64,000 nucleotides of DNA from Candidatus Micrarchaeota archaeon (GCA_040757035.1 JBFLYM010000001.1:12222-76221); one strand, 5' to 3'; numbered from the stretch's first letter, positions 15,753 to 64,000 are shown. The notes: a model not told the origin generated them from the sequence alone. Made by a program: numbers and translations.

Positions 15753-16108
15753 ACCATTGTTTCATCTTAAAGGGCGTATCTCAATTATATTATTTGCATA
15801 AGTTATCTATCAAAAGTTATCTATCAAGGGATTTAAAATAATAACATGTTTTCGTGGCTGTCGATAACAAAGATTTTTGTCATTTATGGAAGATTGAGTA
15901 ATTTCAATGTTATTAATTTCTGGAAAGTTGGTTTTATATATTATGTCTATGAAGTCATTTAGTCGAAAATAATTAGCTAAGCATAAAAATGTTACTTTAT
16001 GATGTAAAATAGTAATATTAGCGTAATACTCATATCTATTATTGTTGTACGTATTTGACGAAAATCGTATATTGGTACAGGTTATATTTTGTAATATATT
16101 GCAAGAGT

Positions 16109-17041
16109 TTATAAATATTCCGTAAATGATTTCACCATCTTCACGGCAGCTCGAACAGCCCTTTGTGCATAATCTTTTTTTCTTTCTTCTGCTTGTTTTT
16201 CGTCAGCGATAGTTATTATTCCAAGGCTTATTGGTTTGTTGTTTTGAAGAGAAAGTTCCATTATTTTCTGTACAGCGGATTTTGCTATAATTCTATCATG
16301 CATTGTTTCGCCCTTTTTCACGTATCCAAGCGTCACAACCGCATCAATTTTTTTTTCGCAAAGAAGTTTTTTTACGCCAAGTGGAATTTCAAACACACCT
16401 GGCACTCTTATTATTGAATGCACCACTGCTTTTTCGTTTTTTGCTTCTTCAAGTGCAAAGTCAAGCATTGCATTTGTGAATGTATTGTTGAATTCGCCTA
16501 CAACTATGCCAAGAACAATCGGCCTTTCAATCAGACTTATTTCGCCTTCATCTTCTCGCCCTTGACGTATTCCTTTTCCAGCATATTGTATTAATTCGCC
16601 TGGATTTGTCGCTAATAAAATCGCGTTGTGCGCGTGTTTTCGCACTCTATTCTCGCAAATTATATAGAATTCTTCCTCGCTCCACGCTTCATTTTCATGC
16701 ACGAATACCTCTATTATGTGTTTGTTTGTCATGAGTTTGGTATTCATTATTCCAAGCGAAGCTTCGTGTGCACATTGAGTATCTATTGTCGCACCTCCAA
16801 CCATTCCGAGCGCCAAACATATATCGCACCCAGAATCAAGAAGTTTTTTGCATTCTGGAGGCAAATCCTTTACTCCAGGAACAGTGGTTCTAATAATTTC
16901 CACATCTGGATAATTATTTTTTGTTTTCTTTGTTTTCTTTGTTTTTTTTATTTCATCTATCGCAATTGCGCCCATATTCACGCGCGAGAACATCGTGTCC
17001 ACAATCCCGATTTTTACTTTATTTTTTACCATAGATATCAC
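16109..17041 (-). CDS. ribC/ribH: Fused archaeal-type riboflavin synthase (RibC, N-terminal ~165 aa) and 6,7-dimethyl-8-ribityllumazine synthase (RibH, C-terminal ~145 aa).
   Basis: The N-terminus KIGIVDTMFSRVNMGAIAI…TVPGVKDLP…CAHEASLG…LMTNKHIIEVFVHENE…GKGIRQGREDEGE aligns with M. jannaschii RibC. The C-terminus …GIVVGEFN…VPGVFEIPLGVKKLL…DAVVTLGYVKKGETMHDRI…RAVRAAVKMVK aligns with lumazine synthase. One uninterrupted 310-codon frame. Confidence 0.75.
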   Translation of the reverse strand: MISMVKNKVKIGIVDTMFSRVNMGAIAIDEIKKTKKTKKTKNNYPDVEIIRTTVPGVKDLPPECKKLLDSGCDICLALGMVGGATIDTQCAHEASLGIMNTKLMTNKHIIEVFVHENEAWSEEEFYIICENRVRKHAHNAILLATNPGELIQYAGKGIRQGREDEGEISLIERPIVLGIVVGEFNNTFTNAMLDFALEEAKNEKAVVHSIIRVPGVFEIPLGVKKLLCEKKIDAVVTLGYVKKGETMHDRIIAKSAVQKIMELSLQNNKPISLGIITIADEKQAEERKKDYAQRAVRAAVKMVKSFTEYL

Positions 17042-17705
17042 TTCCTTTGATAAATGGAATATTGTTTTGTTTTGCGTATTTCATTGCTTGTTTTTTTGTG
17101 AGTGCGTTGCCTCTTCCGAGCATTTCGCACATTACTATTGTTTCGCTCATTCCTGCGAGTTCGCTAAACTTCAGACCAATTTCTGTATGACCGCGGCGAT
17201 TTTCAATTCCTCTTCCAATAAGAAGAAAAACATGGCCAGGACTATAAAAGTTTTTTTCAAATTCTTTTTTTTTGTTTGCGTTTTTGTTTGCGTGCTCCTT
17301 GTTTACACTTTCTACAACTTTTGCGAATTCACGTATAGTCAACGCTCTATCATTGTCTGTTATTCCTGTGAATACTCTTTTATGATTTATTGCAATAGAA
17401 AATGCTGGTTCGTCACCGTAAGCAGTCTTTATGCATATTATCCGAGTCATTCCATAAGCTTTCATAATTTCGCTTATAAATCTAAGCCCGATTTGTTCTG
17501 CAAGCGTCTTTCCCACTGCCATACAAATAAGTCCGCCAGCATCTTTCCTAAGCGTTTCTATTTTCTCTGGAGTAACAAACTTTGGATGAAACACCAAGTC
17601 TGCTTCACCCTCTCGTTTATCATCATCATAAATGACTATGAAATTTCCATTTCTAAACTTATTCAATGCGTTTTCCAATATTTTTCTCATGCATCTAATC
17701 AGCAC
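17019..17705 (-). CDS. ribB: 3,4-dihydroxy-2-butanone-4-phosphate synthase (RibB).
   Basis: DDDKREGEADLV, GGLICMA and RRGHTE motifs. Overlaps the downstream ribC/ribH ORF by 23 nt. Confidence 0.85.
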   Translation of the reverse strand: MLIRCMRKILENALNKFRNGNFIVIYDDDKREGEADLVFHPKFVTPEKIETLRKDAGGLICMAVGKTLAEQIGLRFISEIMKAYGMTRIICIKTAYGDEPAFSIAINHKRVFTGITDNDRALTIREFAKVVESVNKEHANKNANKKKEFEKNFYSPGHVFLLIGRGIENRRGHTEIGLKFSELAGMSETIVMCEMLGRGNALTKKQAMKYAKQNNIPFIKGSDIYGKK

Positions 17706-17780
17706 GATTAACTATTTATAAATATTGACTGTATAAATATTGACTGCAATATAAACAGTCGATATGAACGGCTGATGTAA

Positions 17781-18021
17781 ATATACCGATCCACTAAAAA
17801 AACGTGGATCGCATATACTCATAAACCTTCACGGCCTAAAGGCCGTAGCTTCCTTAAAATGATAAAATGACAATGCAAAGGCATATTTGCCTTTAGGGGA
17901 AGCCGTAGGAAAGGAAGCCCGGTTCTCATCCTAAGGCACAAACGCCTTAGGCTTCCGAACCGTGGAGGTTTACCAATCGAGATAAAACCTAAAAAACAAA
18001 ACCGGAAAAACTTAGTTGGTT
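17781..18021 (+). repeat. Family-B repeat, long form (copy B2). MITE-like, with ATATAC/GTATAT termini. Its 3' end overlaps the aIF2beta start.
   Basis: 5' hairpin gatccactaaaaaaacgtggatc. Internal paired helices (ccttcacgg…ccgtggagg). 3' terminus aaaaacttagttggtt-gaGTATA. B3 and B4 are internal-deletion variants of the same sequence. Confidence 0.55.
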
Positions 18022-18454
18022 GAGTATAGCATTGAATATTGGTGATTTTATAAAAAAATATGAAGATTTGCTTGATGCTGCGTATAAAAGTATTCCTAAA
18101 GAGCTTTATAGCGGCTCACGATTTGAAATTATGAAATTGGAATCATTTACCGAAGGTACAAAAACTATAGTCAAGAATTTTGGTCAAGCAATGGATACGA
18201 TAAGGCGCGATCGCAAAGATGTGATGAAATTCCTTTCCAAAGAACTTGCTGTTCCAATTAATAGCGACGGTGATAGACTTATCTTACAAAGAAAATTCTT
18301 TGGCGACCTAATAAACAAAAAATTTGAAGATTATGTCAATCTTTACGTATTATGTAAGCAATGTAAAAAACCAGATACTCATATAGAAGAGATAGGACAC
18401 GGTGTTAAAAACATAATTTGCGAAGCGTGTGGTGCAAGACATTCGATTAAGTGA
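18020..18454 (+). CDS. eif2b: Translation initiation factor 2 beta subunit (aIF2beta). Non-ATG (TTG) start.
   Basis: …YEDLLDAAY…ELAVP…LILQRKF… and the C-terminal zinc ribbon CKQCKKPDT…CEACGA. Confidence 0.8.
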   Translation: MSIALNIGDFIKKYEDLLDAAYKSIPKELYSGSRFEIMKLESFTEGTKTIVKNFGQAMDTIRRDRKDVMKFLSKELAVPINSDGDRLILQRKFFGDLINKKFEDYVNLYVLCKQCKKPDTHIEEIGHGVKNIICEACGARHSIK

Positions 18455-25345: not shown

Positions 25346-25651
25346 TTATTTTATTATACTCATTATGATCCATGCCTTTGTTTTACTCATCTTTTTTGTT
25401 TCGCCTATCTCAACCACATCTCCTATTTTTGCATTTATGCAGGATGGGTTGTGTACAACTATCCTACTGCGCTCCTTAGAAATTCTATTATACTTTGGCA
25501 TGATATTTGAAATGTTTCTTTCCACAATTGCTGTTCTTTTTCCTTTATCGCTTACAACAATTCCTTTAGTTCTTCTTCCTCTTATCTTAAGTCCTGCGTG
25601 CTTAAAACAATTTTTGTCATCACATTTTTCTTCCATATTTTCCATCACCAA
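25346..25651 (-). CDS. rps17: 30S ribosomal protein S17 (uS17).
   Basis: …GIVVSDKGKRTAIVERNISNIMPKYNRISKERSRIVVHNP… S17 OB-fold. Confidence 0.85.
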   Translation of the reverse strand: MVMENMEEKCDDKNCFKHAGLKIRGRRTKGIVVSDKGKRTAIVERNISNIMPKYNRISKERSRIVVHNPSCINAKIGDVVEIGETKKMSKTKAWIIMSIIK

Positions 25652-25669
25652 ACATTTGGGTTTTAAATT

Positions 25670-25767
25670 ATATACGCAACCAACTAAGTTTTTCCGGTTT
25701 GTTTTTTAGGTTTTATCTCGATGGGTTGCGTATATGCGATCCACGTTTTTTTAGTGGATCGGTATAT
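25670..25767 (-). repeat. Family-B repeat, short form (copy B3), in the 5' region of the S17-L15 operon.
   Basis: Reverse complement reads atataccgatccactaaaaaaacgtggatcgcatatacgcaaccc…aaaacctaaaaaacaaaccggaaaaacttagttggttgcgtatat. Both B2 termini are retained; about 150 nt of the interior is missing. Confidence 0.55.
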
Positions 25768-26006
25768 TCTCTATTATAAACATTGATACACATTATTCTA
25801 GTTGTGCGTAATTATACGTAATTTCAATAATTCTGATTTCTTTGCTTACAATTTTTTTTCCTTTTTTCAGTAAATTCAATATTTAGCAAAGGTATCAGAA
25901 TTTAAATATCGCGTCTAGAAAAGTATTATTTTTCTTTTAGATAAAATGTATTGTATGGATGTAAGGATTTAAAAGGATTTGTTTCAGTTATTTTATTCAG
26001 GCTCAG

Positions 26007-26122
26007 GCCACGGTAGCTCAGCTGGGAGAGCATTCGGCTGAAGAATTCGATTTCAAAACAAGAAACCTGAAACTGAAAATTCAGTTACCGAAGGGTCGTT
26101 GGTTCAAGTCCGACCCGTGGCA
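26007..26122 (+). tRNA. tRNA-Phe(GAA) with a ~43-nt canonical intron (37/38 position).
   Basis: Acceptor GCCACGG/CCGTGGC, D-arm GCTCAGCTGGGAGAGC, anticodon stem TTCGG/CCGAA with loop CTGAAGA. Intron about 26044-26086. T-arm GTTGG-TTCAAGT-CCGAC. Discriminator A. Confidence 0.8.
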
Positions 26123-26248
26123 ATAAGCGTTTTTAGTTTCCTGCTTTTCTGCTTTTAGTTTTCAATATCTTCAAAATCTAACGAGTGTAACGAGTGTAAT
26201 TGGAGGGGGAGTCGGGAGGAACACAAGAACCTGAGGGGGAACGCCAAC

Positions 26249-26884
26249 TTAATACATAATAAGTTCCCCCTTGGGTTTGTGAAGGTTCAAGTCCGACCCG
26301 TGGCAATAATCCTTGGGCTGACATTTATATTCCGCAATTACGTGGTGTTTAGCTCCTGAAGGACTAAGTTCGCTCGCCATAAGATAAAAATTTTCAACTT
26401 TAAAATCGCCAAATTTCCATTTCTGATATTTTTCAAAAAACTGCTTCATGTCCATTTTTTTAATTCGCGCGAGCGTGATATGTCCAACGAACTGTTCTGA
26501 AGGAAATTCTGGCAATGCTTTGTTTATTTCATTCGCAAATTCAACGAGTTCTTGCGTTTTGCATCTCGCCCATATTACACGTGCATGCTGCTTGTTTGGA
26601 AACGCGCCTATGCCTTCTATAGCAACATTAAATGCAGGATACTCAACCGTGCGCAATTGCTGCTCTATTTTCTGAATTTTTTTGGAGTCGACTTCGCCTA
26701 AAAATTTTATTGTGATGTGGATATTTTCATTATTAACTACGGTTACCTTAGCTCCTCCACTTGTCGCTTTAGCTACTCCATTTATTGTTTTATCTCCTAA
26801 AGGTTTTCCTAAAAGTTCGCATTGCACACTATAGATCGCACGCTTTATCCATACCGGAACGCCAACAGAAACGAAAAATCGCAT
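26249..26884 (-). CDS. thpR: RNA 2',3'-cyclic phosphodiesterase / 2'-5' RNA ligase (LigT/ThpR, 2H family). The annotated C-terminal ~30 codons read through the tRNA 3' fragment.
   Basis: Two H-x-T-x motifs, HITIKFLG and HITLARI, at the expected spacing. Confidence 0.75.
   Translation of the reverse strand: MRFFVSVGVPVWIKRAIYSVQCELLGKPLGDKTINGVAKATSGGAKVTVVNNENIHITIKFLGEVDSKKIQKIEQQLRTVEYPAFNVAIEGIGAFPNKQHARVIWARCKTQELVEFANEINKALPEFPSEQFVGHITLARIKKMDMKQFFEKYQKWKFGDFKVENFYLMASELSPSGAKHHVIAEYKCQPKDYCHGSDLNLHKPKGELIMY
26283..26310 (+). repeat. Duplicated 3' fragment of tRNA-Phe (T-arm plus acceptor 3' strand). Possible att-site-like remnant.
   Basis: gaaggttcaagtccgacccgtggcaataa repeats 26094-26125 exactly. 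No matching 5' acceptor strand lies upstream. A perfect 9-bp hairpin agggggaac…gttccccct precedes it. Confidence 0.5.
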
Positions 26885-29607: not shown

Positions 29608-29773
29608 ATAATACCTTAATATAATCTTGACATAATAATCTTGACAAATCTCAATATAATAACTAAATAGATGAGAAATAAATAGATAAGTGTTAATTAT
29701 TTGGACACTATTATTTAAGCGCTTCCATTTTATAAATTCTTGGCTGAAAATAAAAAATGACCGCTATGGAGTA

Positions 29774-42129: not shown

Positions 42130-42188
42130 GAGATTACCAAAGAAGACCGCTGATTTTGGTTGAGTTTATTATCAAATGTTGGTTTGCT

Positions 42189-42300
42189 ATACAGATCCAC
42201 TAAAAAAACGTGGATCGCATATACGCATAAACCTTCACGGTCTAAAGGCCGTAGCTTCCTTAAAATGATAATCGGAAAAACTTAGTTGGTTACGTATATA
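42189..42300 (+). repeat. Family-B repeat, intermediate form (copy B4), in a divergent intergenic region.
   Basis: tatacagatccactaaaaaaacgtggatcgcatatacgcataaaccttcacggtctaaaggccgtagcttccttaaaatgata then atcggaaaaacttagttggttacgtatata. It has the B2 termini with a different internal deletion. Confidence 0.55.
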
Positions 42301-43635: not shown

Positions 43636-44247
43636 AAGGAGTTTGTATATATGTAATATGCTTAATTAATTTTAGAAATTCTATATAATTCTTAGAAAAA
43701 GATATGTTTCCTAATGATTTCCTATATTTAGTACATAAAGGTATGCCTTTGTTCCTAGGAATTATGTGGGAATTTTTATACTAATCCTAAATTAAAAATC
43801 GTAAAAAATAGGACAATTACTGTTACAATAAACAACTTCGTTATATAATTACTGTTTCAGTAAACTACTTACTAAACGATAAACAAAGATTAATAGATAT
43901 GGTTTACTAAAAAGATGTTGTACAGCAAATCTGGAAACAAGAAGCAAGCTTATAGGCACTAAACTGTATAAAAGAGTGGTTTTGGCTATGTTTTGATAGT
44001 TTTGGGGTATTGTAGTGATGTTGGGCAAAGGAGAGTTTACTTATACAATATTTTTTCATCGGTTTTTGATTGAGTTTATAATAATACGAATAATTTTCTG
44101 AATTTTGAGAATAACCTATACTATATTGAAATTGCCTGATAATCATTATAAACAACTCAACTCTAGTTTCTAAAACTTTTTCATCTTTTCTAAAACTATT
44201 TTTCCAAACTTTCTTTTTAAAAAAAAGAAAAAACTAATAAAGAAAAG

Positions 44248-44442
44248 TGGGGGAGGGTCAGGATGATATGACAAACCAACAAAGTAATATCAGAAAGTAT
44301 CGAAGAATTACCGTGTTTGGTTTGTTATATGTTCATGAACGAATCGTCGTTCATGACACCTCAAACTGTTCAAAACTGTTTGAGCACGTGCCTAAAAACC
44401 CTCAACCAGTTTTGGAGGTGGTTTCCCCTCCGCGGTTCGGTT
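44248..44442 (-). repeat. Family-A structured repeat, long form (copy A3). Its terminus supplies the stop codon of the 44441-45220 gene.
   Basis: gggggagggtcagg, then a ~95-nt insert (hairpins acaaaccaa…ttggtttgt and tcatgaacgaatcgtcgttcatga), then cctcaaactgttcaaaactgtttgag…ggaggtggtttcccctccgcggttcggtt. About 95% identical to A4. Confidence 0.6.
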
Positions 44443-45220
44443 AAAATGTTTCATCCAACAATTCTTCTCTATCTCCAGGAATAAAATAATCCCACTCAAA
44501 GCATTTTATCATATCCAGATCTGAAAGTTCGCGTATTTCTGATGATAGCGTACTTGAAAGAATAGTTTTGATTTCCTGCGCTTGCCGCTTTACGCGCGAA
44601 ATTGCTTCGTCTTTTGTTGCGCCTAGAGCGGTTGTACTTGCATATGCTATAATTTCCATGGGGCGCTCTCCAAAAGTAAGGCGTTCAAGCAATCTATTCA
44701 ACATCGCAATTTCTCTATCTAATCTGATTACATCAGGACCATGTTGTGAAAGATGAGATCTTTTTGCCTCCGCTTCGCTTCTTTTTGTTTTAATTTCGTC
44801 TATATATTTGGAAACGTCTACAGAAGAAAAAAGGAAAGTTATCTTTACAACATGTTTTAGAGAACAAAGCGCTTTTTCAAACAACGCGAAAAGCGAGTGT
44901 TTCTCGCCATCATCTTTATCCACTGTACTCTCATAGAGCATTATTTCCAAAAATTTTGTAGCATAATATCCATTTTGAGATTTTTTAAGCACATAATCGC
45001 GCGTTGGCGGAATAGTGTACTCGCCTCTGACTTCAACTATGTTCGCTGCGCTTGTGATGTGAGGCATAAGAAGGTAACCATATTTCCATATAAAAAGTGA
45101 AAACGCGAAAAGCGCTGCCGCAATAATTATAGGAATATGCGCTCCAAGAATTATTGAAAGAATGAGTGCGAGTGTTCCACCAACGAGCGCAATTAGAGTT
45201 ATTGCCCGATTTAATATCAT
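44441..45220 (-). CDS. Bitopic membrane protein: two N-terminal TM helices plus a ~190-aa soluble domain.
   Basis: MILNRAITLIALVGGTLALILSIILGAHIPIIIAAALFAFSLFIW, then a charged domain. Overlaps the upstream gene by 4 nt, so likely an operon. Confidence 0.45.
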   Translation of the reverse strand: MILNRAITLIALVGGTLALILSIILGAHIPIIIAAALFAFSLFIWKYGYLLMPHITSAANIVEVRGEYTIPPTRDYVLKKSQNGYYATKFLEIMLYESTVDKDDGEKHSLFALFEKALCSLKHVVKITFLFSSVDVSKYIDEIKTKRSEAEAKRSHLSQHGPDVIRLDREIAMLNRLLERLTFGERPMEIIAYASTTALGATKDEAISRVKRQAQEIKTILSSTLSSEIRELSDLDMIKCFEWDYFIPGDREELLDETF

Positions 45221-56568: not shown

Positions 56569-56748
56569 ATAAATAATATTCAGATAAAATGTTTAAAAGC
56601 CATTCCTTTAGGTTTTTTTAGATTTTTTTGAGTTTTGTTTGAGCACCCACCTAAAAAACATTCGAACGACAAATCATTCGAAATACATCCCTTTTTCTTT
56701 TAGAAAAAGAAAAAGGTCTGTATCAACCCCAAAAAAAACTAATCGTTT

Positions 56749-56943
56749 GGGGGAGGGTCAGGATGATATGACAAACCAATAAAGTAATTCAGAAAGTACC
56801 GAAGAATTACCGTGTGTTGGTTTGTTATATGTTCATGAACGAATCGTCGTTCATGACACCTCAAACTGTTCAAAACTGTTTGAGCACGTGCCTAAAAACC
56901 CTCAACCAGTTTTGGAGGGGGCACTCCCCTCCGCGGTTCGGTT
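56749..56943 (-). repeat. Family-A structured repeat, long form (copy A4). Its terminus overlaps the TFB stop codon. A further fragment lies at about 56622-56650.
   Basis: Near-identical to A3 (gggggagggtcaggatgatatgacaaaccaa…ccgcggttcggtt). The upstream AT hairpin cttttagaaaaagaaaaagg mirrors the A1/A2 spacer. The partial copy is tttgagcacccacctaaaaaac. Confidence 0.6.
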
Positions 56944-57850
56944 AGAGGTTGATCTTTAAGCCAAGCTCTTTTTTAAGTTCTCTATAGCGATTTCTTATTG
57001 TAACCTCAGTTACACCTGCCACATCTGCAACCTCCTTTTGAGTGCGCTTTTCGTCGTGCATTGCGCTTGCGATATAAAGCGCTGCTGCAGCAACACCAGT
57101 AGGTCCTCGGCCTGAAATAAGCCCTTTTTTCATAGATTTTTTAATTAATTTTATCGCATCTTCTTGTATTAGAGGTCCAAGTTTGAGCGCAGAAGCAAAT
57201 TTTGAAACATATTGACTTGGATCTGTAAGCGGAATTGGTACATCCAACTCGAGTTTTATAAATCGATATGCCCTACCAATTTCTTTTTTTTCTATTCCAG
57301 ATGATTTTGCTATTTCATCAAGTGTGCGCGGTATTCCGTGCATCCTACATATTGCGTAAATTACTGCCGCAACAACACTTTCAATAAGTCTTCCGCGAAT
57401 AAGTTCTTCCTTCACGATTTTTCTATAAAGAAGCGCAGTATTCTCTTTTATATTTTCAGGAAGACCGAGAGAAGATGCAATTCGATCAAGTTCTGTAAGC
57501 GCGATTGCAAGATTCCTCTCCATTGAAGTAGCTACGCTCACTCGCTTATGCCATTTTCTCATTCTATATAATTGAGCTTGTTTTTTAGGAGATATTTTTA
57601 CCCCGCGAATGTCCCGATTGTATTGATCTATTTCAGTTACGAGGCCTTTATTTGGTCTCATAAATTTTACCGGAGCGCCTCCTCTTGCTCGCTTTTCTTT
57701 CTGATCGGCATCAAACGCTCTCCACTCAGGACCAAAATCAACTAAATTTTCATTTATAATGAGTCCGCATGTTGCGCAAATTATTTCTCCTTTTTCGTAA
57801 TCTCTTATAAGTTTTTTATTATTGCATTCAGGACATTTGTTTTCAGTCAT
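56942..57850 (-). CDS. tfb: Transcription initiation factor IIB (TFB).
   Basis: N-terminal zinc ribbon CPECNN…CATCG, B-finger/linker, and two cyclin-fold repeats (…GRGPTGVAAAALYIAS…). Confidence 0.9.
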   Translation of the reverse strand: MTENKCPECNNKKLIRDYEKGEIICATCGLIINENLVDFGPEWRAFDADQKEKRARGGAPVKFMRPNKGLVTEIDQYNRDIRGVKISPKKQAQLYRMRKWHKRVSVATSMERNLAIALTELDRIASSLGLPENIKENTALLYRKIVKEELIRGRLIESVVAAVIYAICRMHGIPRTLDEIAKSSGIEKKEIGRAYRFIKLELDVPIPLTDPSQYVSKFASALKLGPLIQEDAIKLIKKSMKKGLISGRGPTGVAAAALYIASAMHDEKRTQKEVADVAGVTEVTIRNRYRELKKELGLKINL

Positions 57851-58053
57851 CCGATCTCCTCTAACTAAGTTTTTGACAAATTCAAAACAAAACAAGATTT
57901 CAAAACAAGATTTCAGATTTTTTTATATAATTTTTTAATATTTTTAAGTTCTATGAAAATTTTAGGATGTATGGGATTTATATATATTTCGGTTATACGT
58001 ATGTGTTCAATTGCGTTAAAATTGCGTTAAAATATAAAATAAGGTGAAATGGA

Positions 58054-62231: not shown

Positions 62232-62267
62232 AAATTTAGCCTTTTTAGTTTTTATTTTGTTGGTTTG

Positions 62268-63830
62268 CTATAACACATTAAGCGCTTTTCTATACGCTTC
62301 AACGCTTACAAGCACAATATCGGTTCCGAGCGCAGATGAAGTAAGTTCTTTATCTCCTTTCCTTACTCGCACATTCACCCGCACGCTTGCATTACTTCCT
62401 CCTGTAATCGCATCAACATGATAAGAAACAAGTTCCGCGTTTTGATTTCCAATAGCATGATCTATCGCTTTCATGGCCGCATCAACAGGACCGTTGCCCA
62501 CAGCCGCTCCAAAAACAACATCTGGTGCATCTCCAATTTTAAGTCTTACATAGGCATTTGGAGTGGTTACATTTCCCGTGCTAACGTGTATTTCTTTAAT
62601 AACTACATGTTCTCCTTTTCCGCATTCGTTTATTTTTTGAACGCATATGATAAAATCAGCATCGCTTACCTCTAAACCAAGTTCGCCGATTTCCTTAACC
62701 ATGGCCAAGAGTTCTGCTTTTTTATCATCCGCAACTTTAAGCCCAAGCTCCTTAAGTTTGAATTCTATACTTTTTTTTCCTGAAAGTTTGCCTAATGCTA
62801 TATCATGTTTTCGCCCAACAAGTTTAGGTTCAAAAAGCTGATAAAGCCAGGGATTTTTAAACATCCCATCTACGTGTATGCCAGATTCGTGTGTAAAAAC
62901 CTTTCTTCCAATTATTGGTGTATTCCACGCAGGATAAAGATTCGAATAGCCAGCGACAAGTTTGGATACTTCATATACTTTATCCAATTTTATTGTTTTT
63001 ATGTTGTAATGCAATTCAAGATTAAGTGCAACCTGCTCAAGCGAACAATTTCCAGTTCGCTCACCAAGTCCATTTATAGTAGCATGAAATTTGTCAGCAC
63101 CAGCACCAAGTGCCGCGAGTGTATTTGCAACAGCAAGTCCAGTATCATTATGTCCGTGAAATGAAAGTTCCATATTAAATTTACTTTTATCGTTTTTATT
63201 GTCTTGATCAAGTTCACGTTTTAAGCATTTATAAAGAGAGTATGTTTTTTCCGGGGTTAGTACACCTACGGTGTCGCATATGCAGAATGCTTCAATTCCG
63301 ATTTGTTTCGCACTCAATGCAACATCGCAAAGAAATTTGAAGTCAGCTCTGCTTCCATCTTCGGCCATGAGTTCTACGACGAGTCCGCGCTCTTTTGCAT
63401 ATTGAGCGCTTTTTATTATTTCTTTAAGCGCTCGTTCCTTGCTCATTTTTAATTTTTCAGCGATATGCAAATCAGAACCTGGAAAAACAAGTCCAACGAC
63501 ATCTGCATTGGCTTCTACCACGGCATCTATATCCATGTTTACTATTCTTGCAAAAGAACCTATTTTTGCGTTTAATCCGAGACCAACTATTTCATTTATT
63601 GTTTTGATTTCAGATTTGCTGTTTACAGCAGTTCCTGCCTCTATTATACTCACTCCTATTTCGTCCAATTTCTGCGCTATCGCTATTTTTGCTCCCTGCG
63701 AAAATCTCACACCAGGTGTTTGTTCACCGTCTCTGAGTGTAGTATCAAACACGCTTATTTTAGGTGCGAAACTTAATCGTTGCGTTTCTAAATCAAGATT
63801 CATAGCGTAATCACTCTTATTCCCATCCAA
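62268..63830 (-). CDS. leuA: 2-isopropylmalate synthase / (R)-citramalate synthase family (LeuA/CimA).
   Basis: …FDTTLRDGEQTPGV…HGHNDTGLAVANTLAALGAGA…INGLGERTGN… DRE-TIM metallolyase domain plus a C-terminal LeuA-dimer domain. Confidence 0.85.
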   Translation of the reverse strand: MDGNKSDYAMNLDLETQRLSFAPKISVFDTTLRDGEQTPGVRFSQGAKIAIAQKLDEIGVSIIEAGTAVNSKSEIKTINEIVGLGLNAKIGSFARIVNMDIDAVVEANADVVGLVFPGSDLHIAEKLKMSKERALKEIIKSAQYAKERGLVVELMAEDGSRADFKFLCDVALSAKQIGIEAFCICDTVGVLTPEKTYSLYKCLKRELDQDNKNDKSKFNMELSFHGHNDTGLAVANTLAALGAGADKFHATINGLGERTGNCSLEQVALNLELHYNIKTIKLDKVYEVSKLVAGYSNLYPAWNTPIIGRKVFTHESGIHVDGMFKNPWLYQLFEPKLVGRKHDIALGKLSGKKSIEFKLKELGLKVADDKKAELLAMVKEIGELGLEVSDADFIICVQKINECGKGEHVVIKEIHVSTGNVTTPNAYVRLKIGDAPDVVFGAAVGNGPVDAAMKAIDHAIGNQNAELVSYHVDAITGGSNASVRVNVRVRKGDKELTSSALGTDIVLVSVEAYRKALNVL

Positions 63831-64000
63831 TTTTCTTTATTAGTTTTTTCTTTTTGGGGTGACACTATGTGACTAACCCCGTAAAACGGGGCATCGCCCT
63901 TTATGTTGCGCATATCGGGCGATGTGCCAACCAGGAAAAGGCGCAAATGCTATCAGCATTTACCTACCTCTTAAAATAGGTGGCATTAGTCAACACAGTG

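Follow-up and report, generated by a model that had tools for sequence, protein, structure and literature searches.

Genomic setting of the family B copies

The DNA analysed here (the window, 64 kb) comes from a metagenome-assembled Micrarchaeota (DPANN) genome, and about 87% of the window is coding. The genes with a Pfam match are all housekeeping genes and include the riboflavin operon, aIF2beta/aIF1A, EF-2, SRP54, TFB, transketolase and the S17-L14-L24-S4e-L5...L15 ribosomal operon; ten ORFs have no Pfam match. Copies of one repeat, called family B here, lie exclusively in intergenic DNA. Three of them are complete (B2, B3 and B4, 96-247 nt long) and a fourth is partial, a lone hairpin.

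17782-18028 (+): B2, the full-length copy, 247 nt, between ribB (17019-17705, -) and aIF2beta
25671-25766 (-): B3, the short copy, consisting of a hairpin module (H) and a body closed by a perfect 12-bp inverted repeat
42188-42298 (+): B4, a deletion derivative of the long form, lacking the equivalent of 17866-18001
1303-1333 (-): lone H module (TATAC plus hairpin)
1304-1326 (-), 17788-17810 (+), 25738-25760 (-) and 42194-42216 (+): sites of the 23-nt hairpin GATCCACTAAAAAAACGTGGATC

A preliminary description of this DNA had proposed that B2, B3, B4 and the solo hairpin form one repeat family, and exact-match counts, alignment and BLAST agree on this. The window contains exactly four occurrences of the hairpin GATCCACTAAAAAAACGTGGATC, with a chance expectation of none, and exactly three of the 3' piece GGAAAAACTTAGTTGGTT compared to 0.13 expected. 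The shared parts of the copies, which sit at four unrelated loci, are 96-100% identical by alignment and BLAST, and BLAST detected no further copy in the window. Two of the four hairpins are on the plus and two on the minus strand within 41 kb, so there is no strand bias (n=4). The limits and termini given in the same description needed correction. The copies do lie at the loci indicated, but B2 runs past 18021 through GAGTATA to 18028; and of the proposed ATATAC/GTATAT termini, TATAC...GTATA is common to the copies, whereas B2 ends in GTATAG and not in GTATAT.

The gene contexts that had been described for the complete copies (the non-ATG start of aIF2beta, the r-protein operon and a divergent region) are correct. 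B2 lies between ribB (-) and aIF2beta (+), with its left end 76 nt from ribB and its right end 21 nt from the ATA at 18050, the likely aIF2beta start as judged from homologs, to which this distance is counted. B3 is located between an intron-containing tRNA (+), 240 nt from its left end, and S17 (-), whose ATG (25636) is 34 nt downstream of its right end and which is the first gene of the S17-L14-L24-S4e-L5... operon. B4 separates a divergent gene pair, a Lon-like gene (-, start 42129, 58 nt away) and a PHP-domain gene (+, ATG 42340, 41 nt away). The lone H module, on the other hand, is found between convergent genes, 22 nt from the stop of an AAA_14 ATPase gene, and directly joins a truncated copy (1207-1302) of another repeat, family A. 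A consistent location in 5' regions therefore holds for the three complete copies and fails for the lone hairpin. A copy in a divergent intergenic region is automatically co-oriented with one of the genes.

At aIF2beta the repeat reaches into the annotated gene. The TTG start annotated by NCBI (18020) falls within the last 9 nt of B2, which the family B insertion explains. Homologs of aIF2beta begin with MKKYEDLL, and the codon for that methionine is here ATA (18050), preceded by a Shine-Dalgarno-like GGTGAT at 18041-18046. The only standard starts in frame are TTG 18032 and TTG 18020, the latter inside the repeat. The real start is uncertain, since the conserved methionine codon is an ATA with a Shine-Dalgarno-like motif and the annotated TTG is part of B2. 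This gene for a translation initiation factor may thus have a non-canonical start, and B2 may have changed its 5' end. In 9-aa translation the right end of the repeat reads RKNLVGCVY. In B3 and B4 the right end is GTATATAA, which is TATA-box-like and placed 34-41 nt from the start codon; as far as the sequence can tell, the donation of a promoter or 5'UTR by family B is plausible.

Anatomy and nested deletions

Each copy opens with TATAC followed by an 8-bp perfect hairpin, and the right end reads ...GTTGGTTNNGTATA. The parts are most complete in B2:

17782-17811 (+): module H, TATAC and then the hairpin CGATCCAC-TAAAAAAAC-GTGGATCG
17812-17821 (+): left strand of the closing inverted repeat, CATATACTCA, which pairs with TGAGTATA at 18021-18028
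17822-17971 (+): inner GC-rich domain I, 150 nt, 47% GC, three hairpins closed by AAACCTTC/GGAGGTTT; missing in B3, half-deleted in B4
17972-18028 (+): right arm, ending in ...GGAAAAACTTAGTTGGTTGAGTATA

The stem of module H is unchanged between B2 and B3, and B4 carries one C-to-A exchange at the first stem base. H is followed by the two bases CA and then by a second TATAC, with which the inverted repeat closing the remainder of the element begins. B3 has this repeat in perfect form, 12 of 12 bp (ATATACGCAACC/GGTTGCGTATAT), a value that was equalled by none of 2000 shuffles. The version in B2 (TATACTCA/TGAGTATA) differs from that of B3 by one compensated change, and that in B4 has one mismatch. 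At the outer ends, the left terminus TATACCGATCCAC matches the right terminus TATACGCAACCAAC at 10 of 13 positions (by reading), and the outermost perfect inverted repeat is 5 bp (TATAC/GTATA).

As the preliminary description had suggested, alignment shows the copies to be one sequence with nested internal deletions. B3 equals B2 minus the stem-closed domain 17822-17971 (150 nt); in B2 this domain lies exactly between GCA and ACC of the B3-type sequence, and the junction is without duplication. B4 retains the first 44 nt of the inner domain, a sequence it has in common with B2, and lacks 136 nt corresponding to 17866-18001. The inner domain differs in composition from the genome (47% vs 35% GC). 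None of the copies appears to code for a protein, as all six frames are broken or non-homologous; a search with the translated 79-aa open frame across B2, meant to pick up spurious ORFs called over other copies, found no protein.

A terminal motif shared with other elements

The end motif TATNNNNAACCAAC occurs nine times in the window compared to 0.13 expected, and the three right ends of family B are among these occurrences. Others belong to elements of different sequence or stand alone, and are listed here together with the limits of the family A copies:

44263-44358 (-): small element nested in a family A long form; hairpin TCATGAACGA/TCGTTCATGA, then a piece bounded by ATATAACAAACCAAAC...GTTGGTTTGTCATAT
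about 56763-56858: second copy of the nested small element, within the other family A long form
42177-42191 (-): lone terminal motif TATAGCAAACCAACA, abutting the left end of B4 with TATA in common
62258-62272 (-): identical lone 15-mer TATAGCAAACCAACA
15927-15940 (-): weaker lone end motif
1040-1153 (+), 1207-1302 (+), 44222-44442 (-) and 56740-56946 (-): family A copies, with GC-rich hairpins CCGCGGAGGGGGAAACCCCCTCC...

The nested element has the same layout as family B, a hairpin followed by a closed piece, and the same terminal motif; the interiors are unrelated. Differing interiors combined with a common end motif are expected if several non-autonomous elements use one transposase. The insert of 96 nt is what sets the family A long forms apart from the short forms. 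Its presence in both long forms, like that of the inner domain in B2 and B4, indicates that the composites multiplied as units. The lone ends are found in both orientations relative to genes.

With regard to family A itself, three of the four copies start at or overlap the stop of a co-oriented gene (RNase H-like 677-1084, the ORF 44441-45220 and TFB 56942-57895), and the fourth (1207-1302) follows the first (1040-1153) in tandem. The copies continue into palindromes rich in T and A; identity between the two long forms is 98-99%. From their position and sequence, they look like 3'-end or terminator-associated repeats. An Rfam search of family A gave no match.

Family B as a probable non-autonomous mobile element

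We consider it probable that family B is a MITE-type DNA element, non-autonomous and private to this lineage, which resides in this Micrarchaeota genome and is mobilised in trans at TA or TATA. The preliminary description had named two possible identities, an expressed structured RNA and a non-autonomous mobile element. The mobile element is the one that fits the short, non-coding, dispersed and near-identical copies, the inverted-repeat ends, the deletion derivatives, the common end motif and the contig breaks described below. MITEs are non-coding and measure about 50-800 bp, a range that contains the 96-247 nt found here, and they occur as several dispersed, highly similar copies, as do the three complete copies and the partial one. 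They are found in about 20% of archaeal genomes, with the DPANN among the densest (PMC11602168). The terminal inverted repeats agree less well: compared to at least about 10 bp for a MITE, the ends of family B are perfect over 5 bp and imperfect over 10 of 13 positions, and the perfect 12-bp repeat of B3 lies inward of H. A strong repeat that leaves H outside is atypical for a simple MITE, and the architecture as a whole, in which a tagged hairpin stands outside the main inverted repeat and composites are nested, is slightly unusual. Within the 64-kb window we found neither a transposase nor an autonomous element with family B ends.

A possible course of events can be outlined. B2 is the most complete form, made of TATAC with the perfect hairpin H, an inverted-repeat body and the GC-rich inner domain of three hairpins; the ends of the body pair as TATAC-N-CA[ACC] ... 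[GGT]TG-N-GTATA. B3 and B4 are deletion derivatives, and their end-points at or near helix bases are where replication that slips across hairpins should leave them. A transposase gene located outside the window would provide an enzyme to recognise the common terminal motif TATA-NNN-AACCAAC and move the element in trans into TA or TATA sites of AT-rich promoter DNA, each end regenerating TATA. The TATAC...GTATA ends agree with a duplicated TA or TATA of the kind made by IS630/Tc1-type or some IS5-type elements. The class of the transposase, the TA/TATA duplication and any effect on transcription are what we infer in this outline. The flanks of the copies share nothing beyond the palindromic TA/TATA, and a duplication of this kind is indistinguishable from the termini because the ends are palindromic. 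Targeting of TA/TATA in promoters would account for the survival of copies in intergenic promoter regions only, with the right end 21-41 nt from a start codon.

Movement could also have been brought about by an HUH tyrosine transposase acting on single-stranded DNA, family B then being an IS200/IS605-derived PATE or a REP/RAYT-like element, with the TATAC-tagged H as recognition and cleavage signal and insertion beside TATA(C) without target duplication. We regard this as unlikely, although several features fit. The perfect 8-bp hairpin of H carries a conserved pentanucleotide tag, has the shape of a tagged REP palindrome of 20-40 nt and also occurs alone, and the related nested element likewise begins with a hairpin. 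TATAC or TATA is present at every family B end, which is compatible with insertion beside the fixed 4-5-nt target expected of a PATE, and beyond TATA no duplication can be seen. Presence or absence of the inner domain leaves no duplication at the junction between GCA and ACC, and IS200/IS605 is the commonest IS family in Micrarchaeota, occurring in >65% of genomes (PMC13343696). However, a hairpin is present at one family B end only, the 3' end having no similar palindrome, and its termini form inverted repeats. The two ends of IS200/IS605 elements bear subterminal hairpins that resemble each other; PATEs have such hairpins at both ends and no inverted-repeat termini, a layout that differs from that of family B. 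Furthermore, the tag abuts the hairpin and leaves no room for guide bases, the orientation of the copies is 2:2 (n=4), where a PATE should have a strand or orientation bias, and no TnpA or RAYT gene is encoded in the window.

Comparison with the nearest relative

The closest genome among the GTDB representatives is the MAG DYTL01, with a 75% identical S4e and proteins that are 75-78% identical; aIF2beta of the closest other genome is at most 78% identical. Family B was not found in DYTL01, including the regions upstream of S17 and aIF2beta. No empty-site allele was found either, as these two upstream regions of the relative are not alignable, and the only filled/empty pairs are paralogous (B2 vs B3, and the family A long vs short forms). 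The near-identity of copies beside unrelated genes, together with a relative that has no family B upstream of S17 and aIF2beta, points to a recent, lineage-specific spread and not to a conserved RNA. The relative has its own repeat with terminal inverted repeats (MAG DYTL01000016, L009), in forms of 103 nt (7752-7854) and 206 nt (2517-2722) and with the ends AGTAAATCCGCA/TTCGGAATTACT. These two forms indicate that small repeats of this type with length variants recur in the lineage.

Gene order and short intergenic segments were also compared. The ribosomal cluster starts at S17 in both genomes, with no r-protein gene immediately upstream (25636-26007 vs L002 1449-2095). After L15 the order differs, with convergent aIF1A/aIF2beta here and a 696-aa ORF plus a SecY-sized ORF in the relative. 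An intergenic 39-mer that contains a doubled TTCTAAAACT is 90% identical (44164-44202 vs L002 831-869), and the 23-nt perfect palindrome CTTTTTCTTTTAGAAAAAGAAAA is 100% identical (56691-56713 vs L009 6738-6760). Judging from their sequences, the 39-mer and the palindrome are probably bidirectional terminators or protein-binding sites. Two other matches between the window and the relative, of 18 and 22 nt, were judged to be due to chance because they are not colinear.

Folding of the long form and the possibility of a structured RNA

The long form, which had been described as folding into several GC helices, folds very stably, with -85.2 kcal/mol and z = -7.1. Family B might accordingly be read as a functional structured RNA, either a cis-acting 5' leader for aIF2beta, the S17 operon and the PHP-domain gene or a family of small RNA genes, that is kept by selection and not by selfish spread. 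Besides the fold, the elevated GC content of the inner domain and the fact that all complete copies point to a nearby start codon speak for such an RNA. In the closing stem, one change is compensatory, and one C-to-T exchange keeps a G-U pair on the plus strand.

We nevertheless find an RNA function improbable. Folding is no weaker on the reverse strand (-85.8 vs -85.2 kcal/mol for the forward strand, and a similar count of G-U pairs), and this strand-equal folding fits a palindrome at the DNA level. The covariance check of the long form that had been proposed yielded a single compensatory pair, which is not significant, as 169 of 500 shuffles were as good. Whole helices are dropped in the variants (150 and 136 nt), a loss incompatible with a functional RNA, and no consistent terminator follows the element. 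The recent spread indicated by near-identical copies beside unrelated genes, and by the absence of family B upstream of the same genes in the relative, also argues against selection for an RNA. At the gathering score, Rfam gave no match to family B, and at E up to 10 no family was recognised on either strand, the only two matches being at chance level (24 bits vs cut-offs of 45-65).

Particular RNA identities were rejected individually. B2 lies 76 nt upstream of ribB on the opposite strand, yet there is no Rfam match to the FMN riboswitch at E up to 10. For a C/D box sRNA, the only match scored 24.5 bits vs a cut-off of 65, and the D box is absent. A BHB intron was discarded for the inner domain, the junctions of which are not bulge-helix-bulge.

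A regulatory DNA module of the host, that is, a palindromic protein-binding site with a promoter, insulator or terminator role that was copied by recombination or gene conversion, is less probable still. The motif GATCCAC-N9-GTGGATC does resemble a palindrome bound by a dimer, the A7/T7 hairpin loop gives one strand the look of an archaeal oligo-T terminator, the lone copy lies between convergent genes where a terminator would be useful, and the TATA-box-like right end GTATATAA is 21-41 nt from start codons. Operators, however, are not flanked by 100-250 nt of sequence kept at 96-100% identity, and the neighbouring genes have no function in common. Internal deletions and nested composites are the signature of a mobile repeat, and the lone ends related to family B face either way with respect to genes. 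We also rejected a CRISPR array or replication-origin repeats, as distances of 8-24 kb separate the copies, which lie in promoters.

Assembly breaks and probable copies beyond the window

The Logan assembly of the source run SRR32167786, whose contigs are 100% identical to the window, provides an independent view of the repeat boundaries. Contigs end or start within family B as follows:

1304: end of contig L008, exactly at the end of the lone H
17999: start of contig L014, 30 nt before the first unique base after B2 (18029)
25698 (reverse strand): start of contig L012, 30 nt before the first unique base after B3 (25668)
42257: start of contig L011, inside B4

The start of L014 independently confirms the right boundary of B2 at 18028/18029. 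The distances of exactly 30 nt put the repeat boundary right after GAGTATA in B2 and right after GCGTATATA in B3. The 30-nt overlap of L012 and L014 fits a graph of k=31, which is presumably the setting of the Logan graph. Five of the seven known Logan contig ends fall inside repeats, which make up about 2% of the window; because of the repeats, short-read assemblies of this organism fragment here. Another run, SRR29635776, contains a strain with 99.3% identity over 1 kb.

The 30-mers at the boundaries are unique in the window, the longest exact matches in common being only 24, 24 and 22 nt. Contigs that break at such 30-mers imply, indirectly and if k=31 applies, further family B copies elsewhere in the genome or sample, one of them with the B4-specific deletion junction, although strain variation could contribute. 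The B4-type deletion junction thus seems to have multiplied. Exact-pattern scans with the hairpin, the right end and the inner domain gave no match in the GTDB representative genomes, the JGI metagenomes or IMG/VR, and BLAST of B2 against phage and plasmid collections likewise gave none. That the repeats are chimeric joins made in assembly or binning is very unlikely: the source is metagenome-assembled and its short-read contigs do break at the repeats, but the independent assembly joins each unique flank to 30 nt of the element at 100% identity, the flanking genes on both sides are ordinary Micrarchaeota core genes and the modules occur at four loci in differing contexts.

Comparison with known repeat families

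Family B has its closest functional analogue in the Correia elements (CREE) of Neisseria, a MITE-like family. CREE insert at TA. Both are non-coding intergenic elements of about 100-160 nt whose inverted-repeat ends start with TATA; each exists in long and short forms, distinguished by an internal segment, and in both the paired ends fold to a hairpin. The Correia repeat starts with 5'-tatagtggattaac... and has TATA-starting inverted-repeat ends (PMC5039591). CREE are described as adjoining gene starts, and their ends as able to create promoters (PMC2649163). CREE are bacterial, whereas family B is archaeal, and a promoter effect of the latter would use a TATA box instead of a -10 box. Unlike CREE, family B has an additional TATAC-tagged hairpin outside the strong inverted repeat. 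The outer perfect repeat is 5 bp compared to 26 bp in CREE, and there is no sequence homology.

The closest category is formed by archaeal MITEs, which are short, non-coding, multi-copy, species-restricted and intergenic like family B. Redder, She and Garrett reportedly described the SM1-SM4 MITE families of Sulfolobus in 2001. The Sulfolobus families are tied to specific IS elements through their terminal repeats and have clear target duplications. In contrast to these, family B has flanks that agree only in TATA, and the window holds no transposase. BOX repeats resemble family B in that modules appear in varied combinations (H; H and body; H, body and inner domain) and form stable stem-loops near genes. 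BOX modules are tandemly variable and lack a TATA-ended inverted repeat; the variants of family B look like deletions of one master sequence and not like module shuffling. PATEs and REP/REPIN elements share with family B a hairpin with a short conserved tag on one side and no visible target duplication, and REPs carry a conserved tetranucleotide tag (PMC3733652). Family B differs from PATEs and REPs by its inverted-repeat ends, a hairpin at a single end, the lack of an orientation bias and the absence of a Y1 transposase nearby. Family B is a private addition to the known class of MITE-like elements, ordinary in kind, and not a new principle.

The mobile DNA of DPANN archaea is little studied, and the window offers a clean and well-bounded example of small repeat families. 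These fill roughly one-seventh of the intergenic DNA counted and sit in promoters of essential translation genes. One could go further and place the lone TATA-NNN-AACCAAC ends together with family B and the nested element of family A in a superfamily that specifically targets archaeal TATA boxes and whose members would act as portable promoter, leader or insulator cassettes; we hold this extension to be doubtful. A TATA duplication would rebuild a TATA box at each end, so that core promoters of essential genes (aIF2beta/aIF1A and the S17 operon) could be occupied without silencing in a reduced DPANN genome. If this were true, the shift of the aIF2beta start (conserved ATG to ATA, with a TTG inside B2) would be one consequence. 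Should the elements bring in or displace TATA boxes, this would give very small genomes a simple route to rewired expression.

Other features of the window

At the end of the window, a GC-rich helical stretch, GGGGTGACACTATGTGACTAACCCCGTAAAACGGGGCATCGCCC..., at 63840-64000 continues beyond the last base. It may be a predicted structured RNA gene that is cut by the window edge; Rfam at E up to 1 gave no match to this interval.

The intron-containing tRNA near B3 (26007-26122) has an intron of 46 nt and is missed by ARAGORN and detected by Rfam with 53 bits. Its last 31 nt recur 183 nt downstream (26284-26314) with 94% identity, just past a long, perfect-looking hairpin at 26219-26288. The repeat region 26219-26314 overlaps the 5' end of a mechanically called LigT-like ORF (26249-26884) and may be what is left of an integration site, or else another tRNA that is unusual or split. 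A tRNA-linked integration site was rejected as the identity of family B.

Directly in front of ribB, with which the riboflavin operon begins, the direct repeat TATAAATATTGACTG is present twice in tandem and is followed by a partial inverted copy (17716-17746). Its arrangement suggests a likely operator or duplicated promoter. Paired repeats like those at ribB are also found in the divergent region 29608-29689 beside an HTH_3 gene, where GTCAAGATTAT occurs twice.
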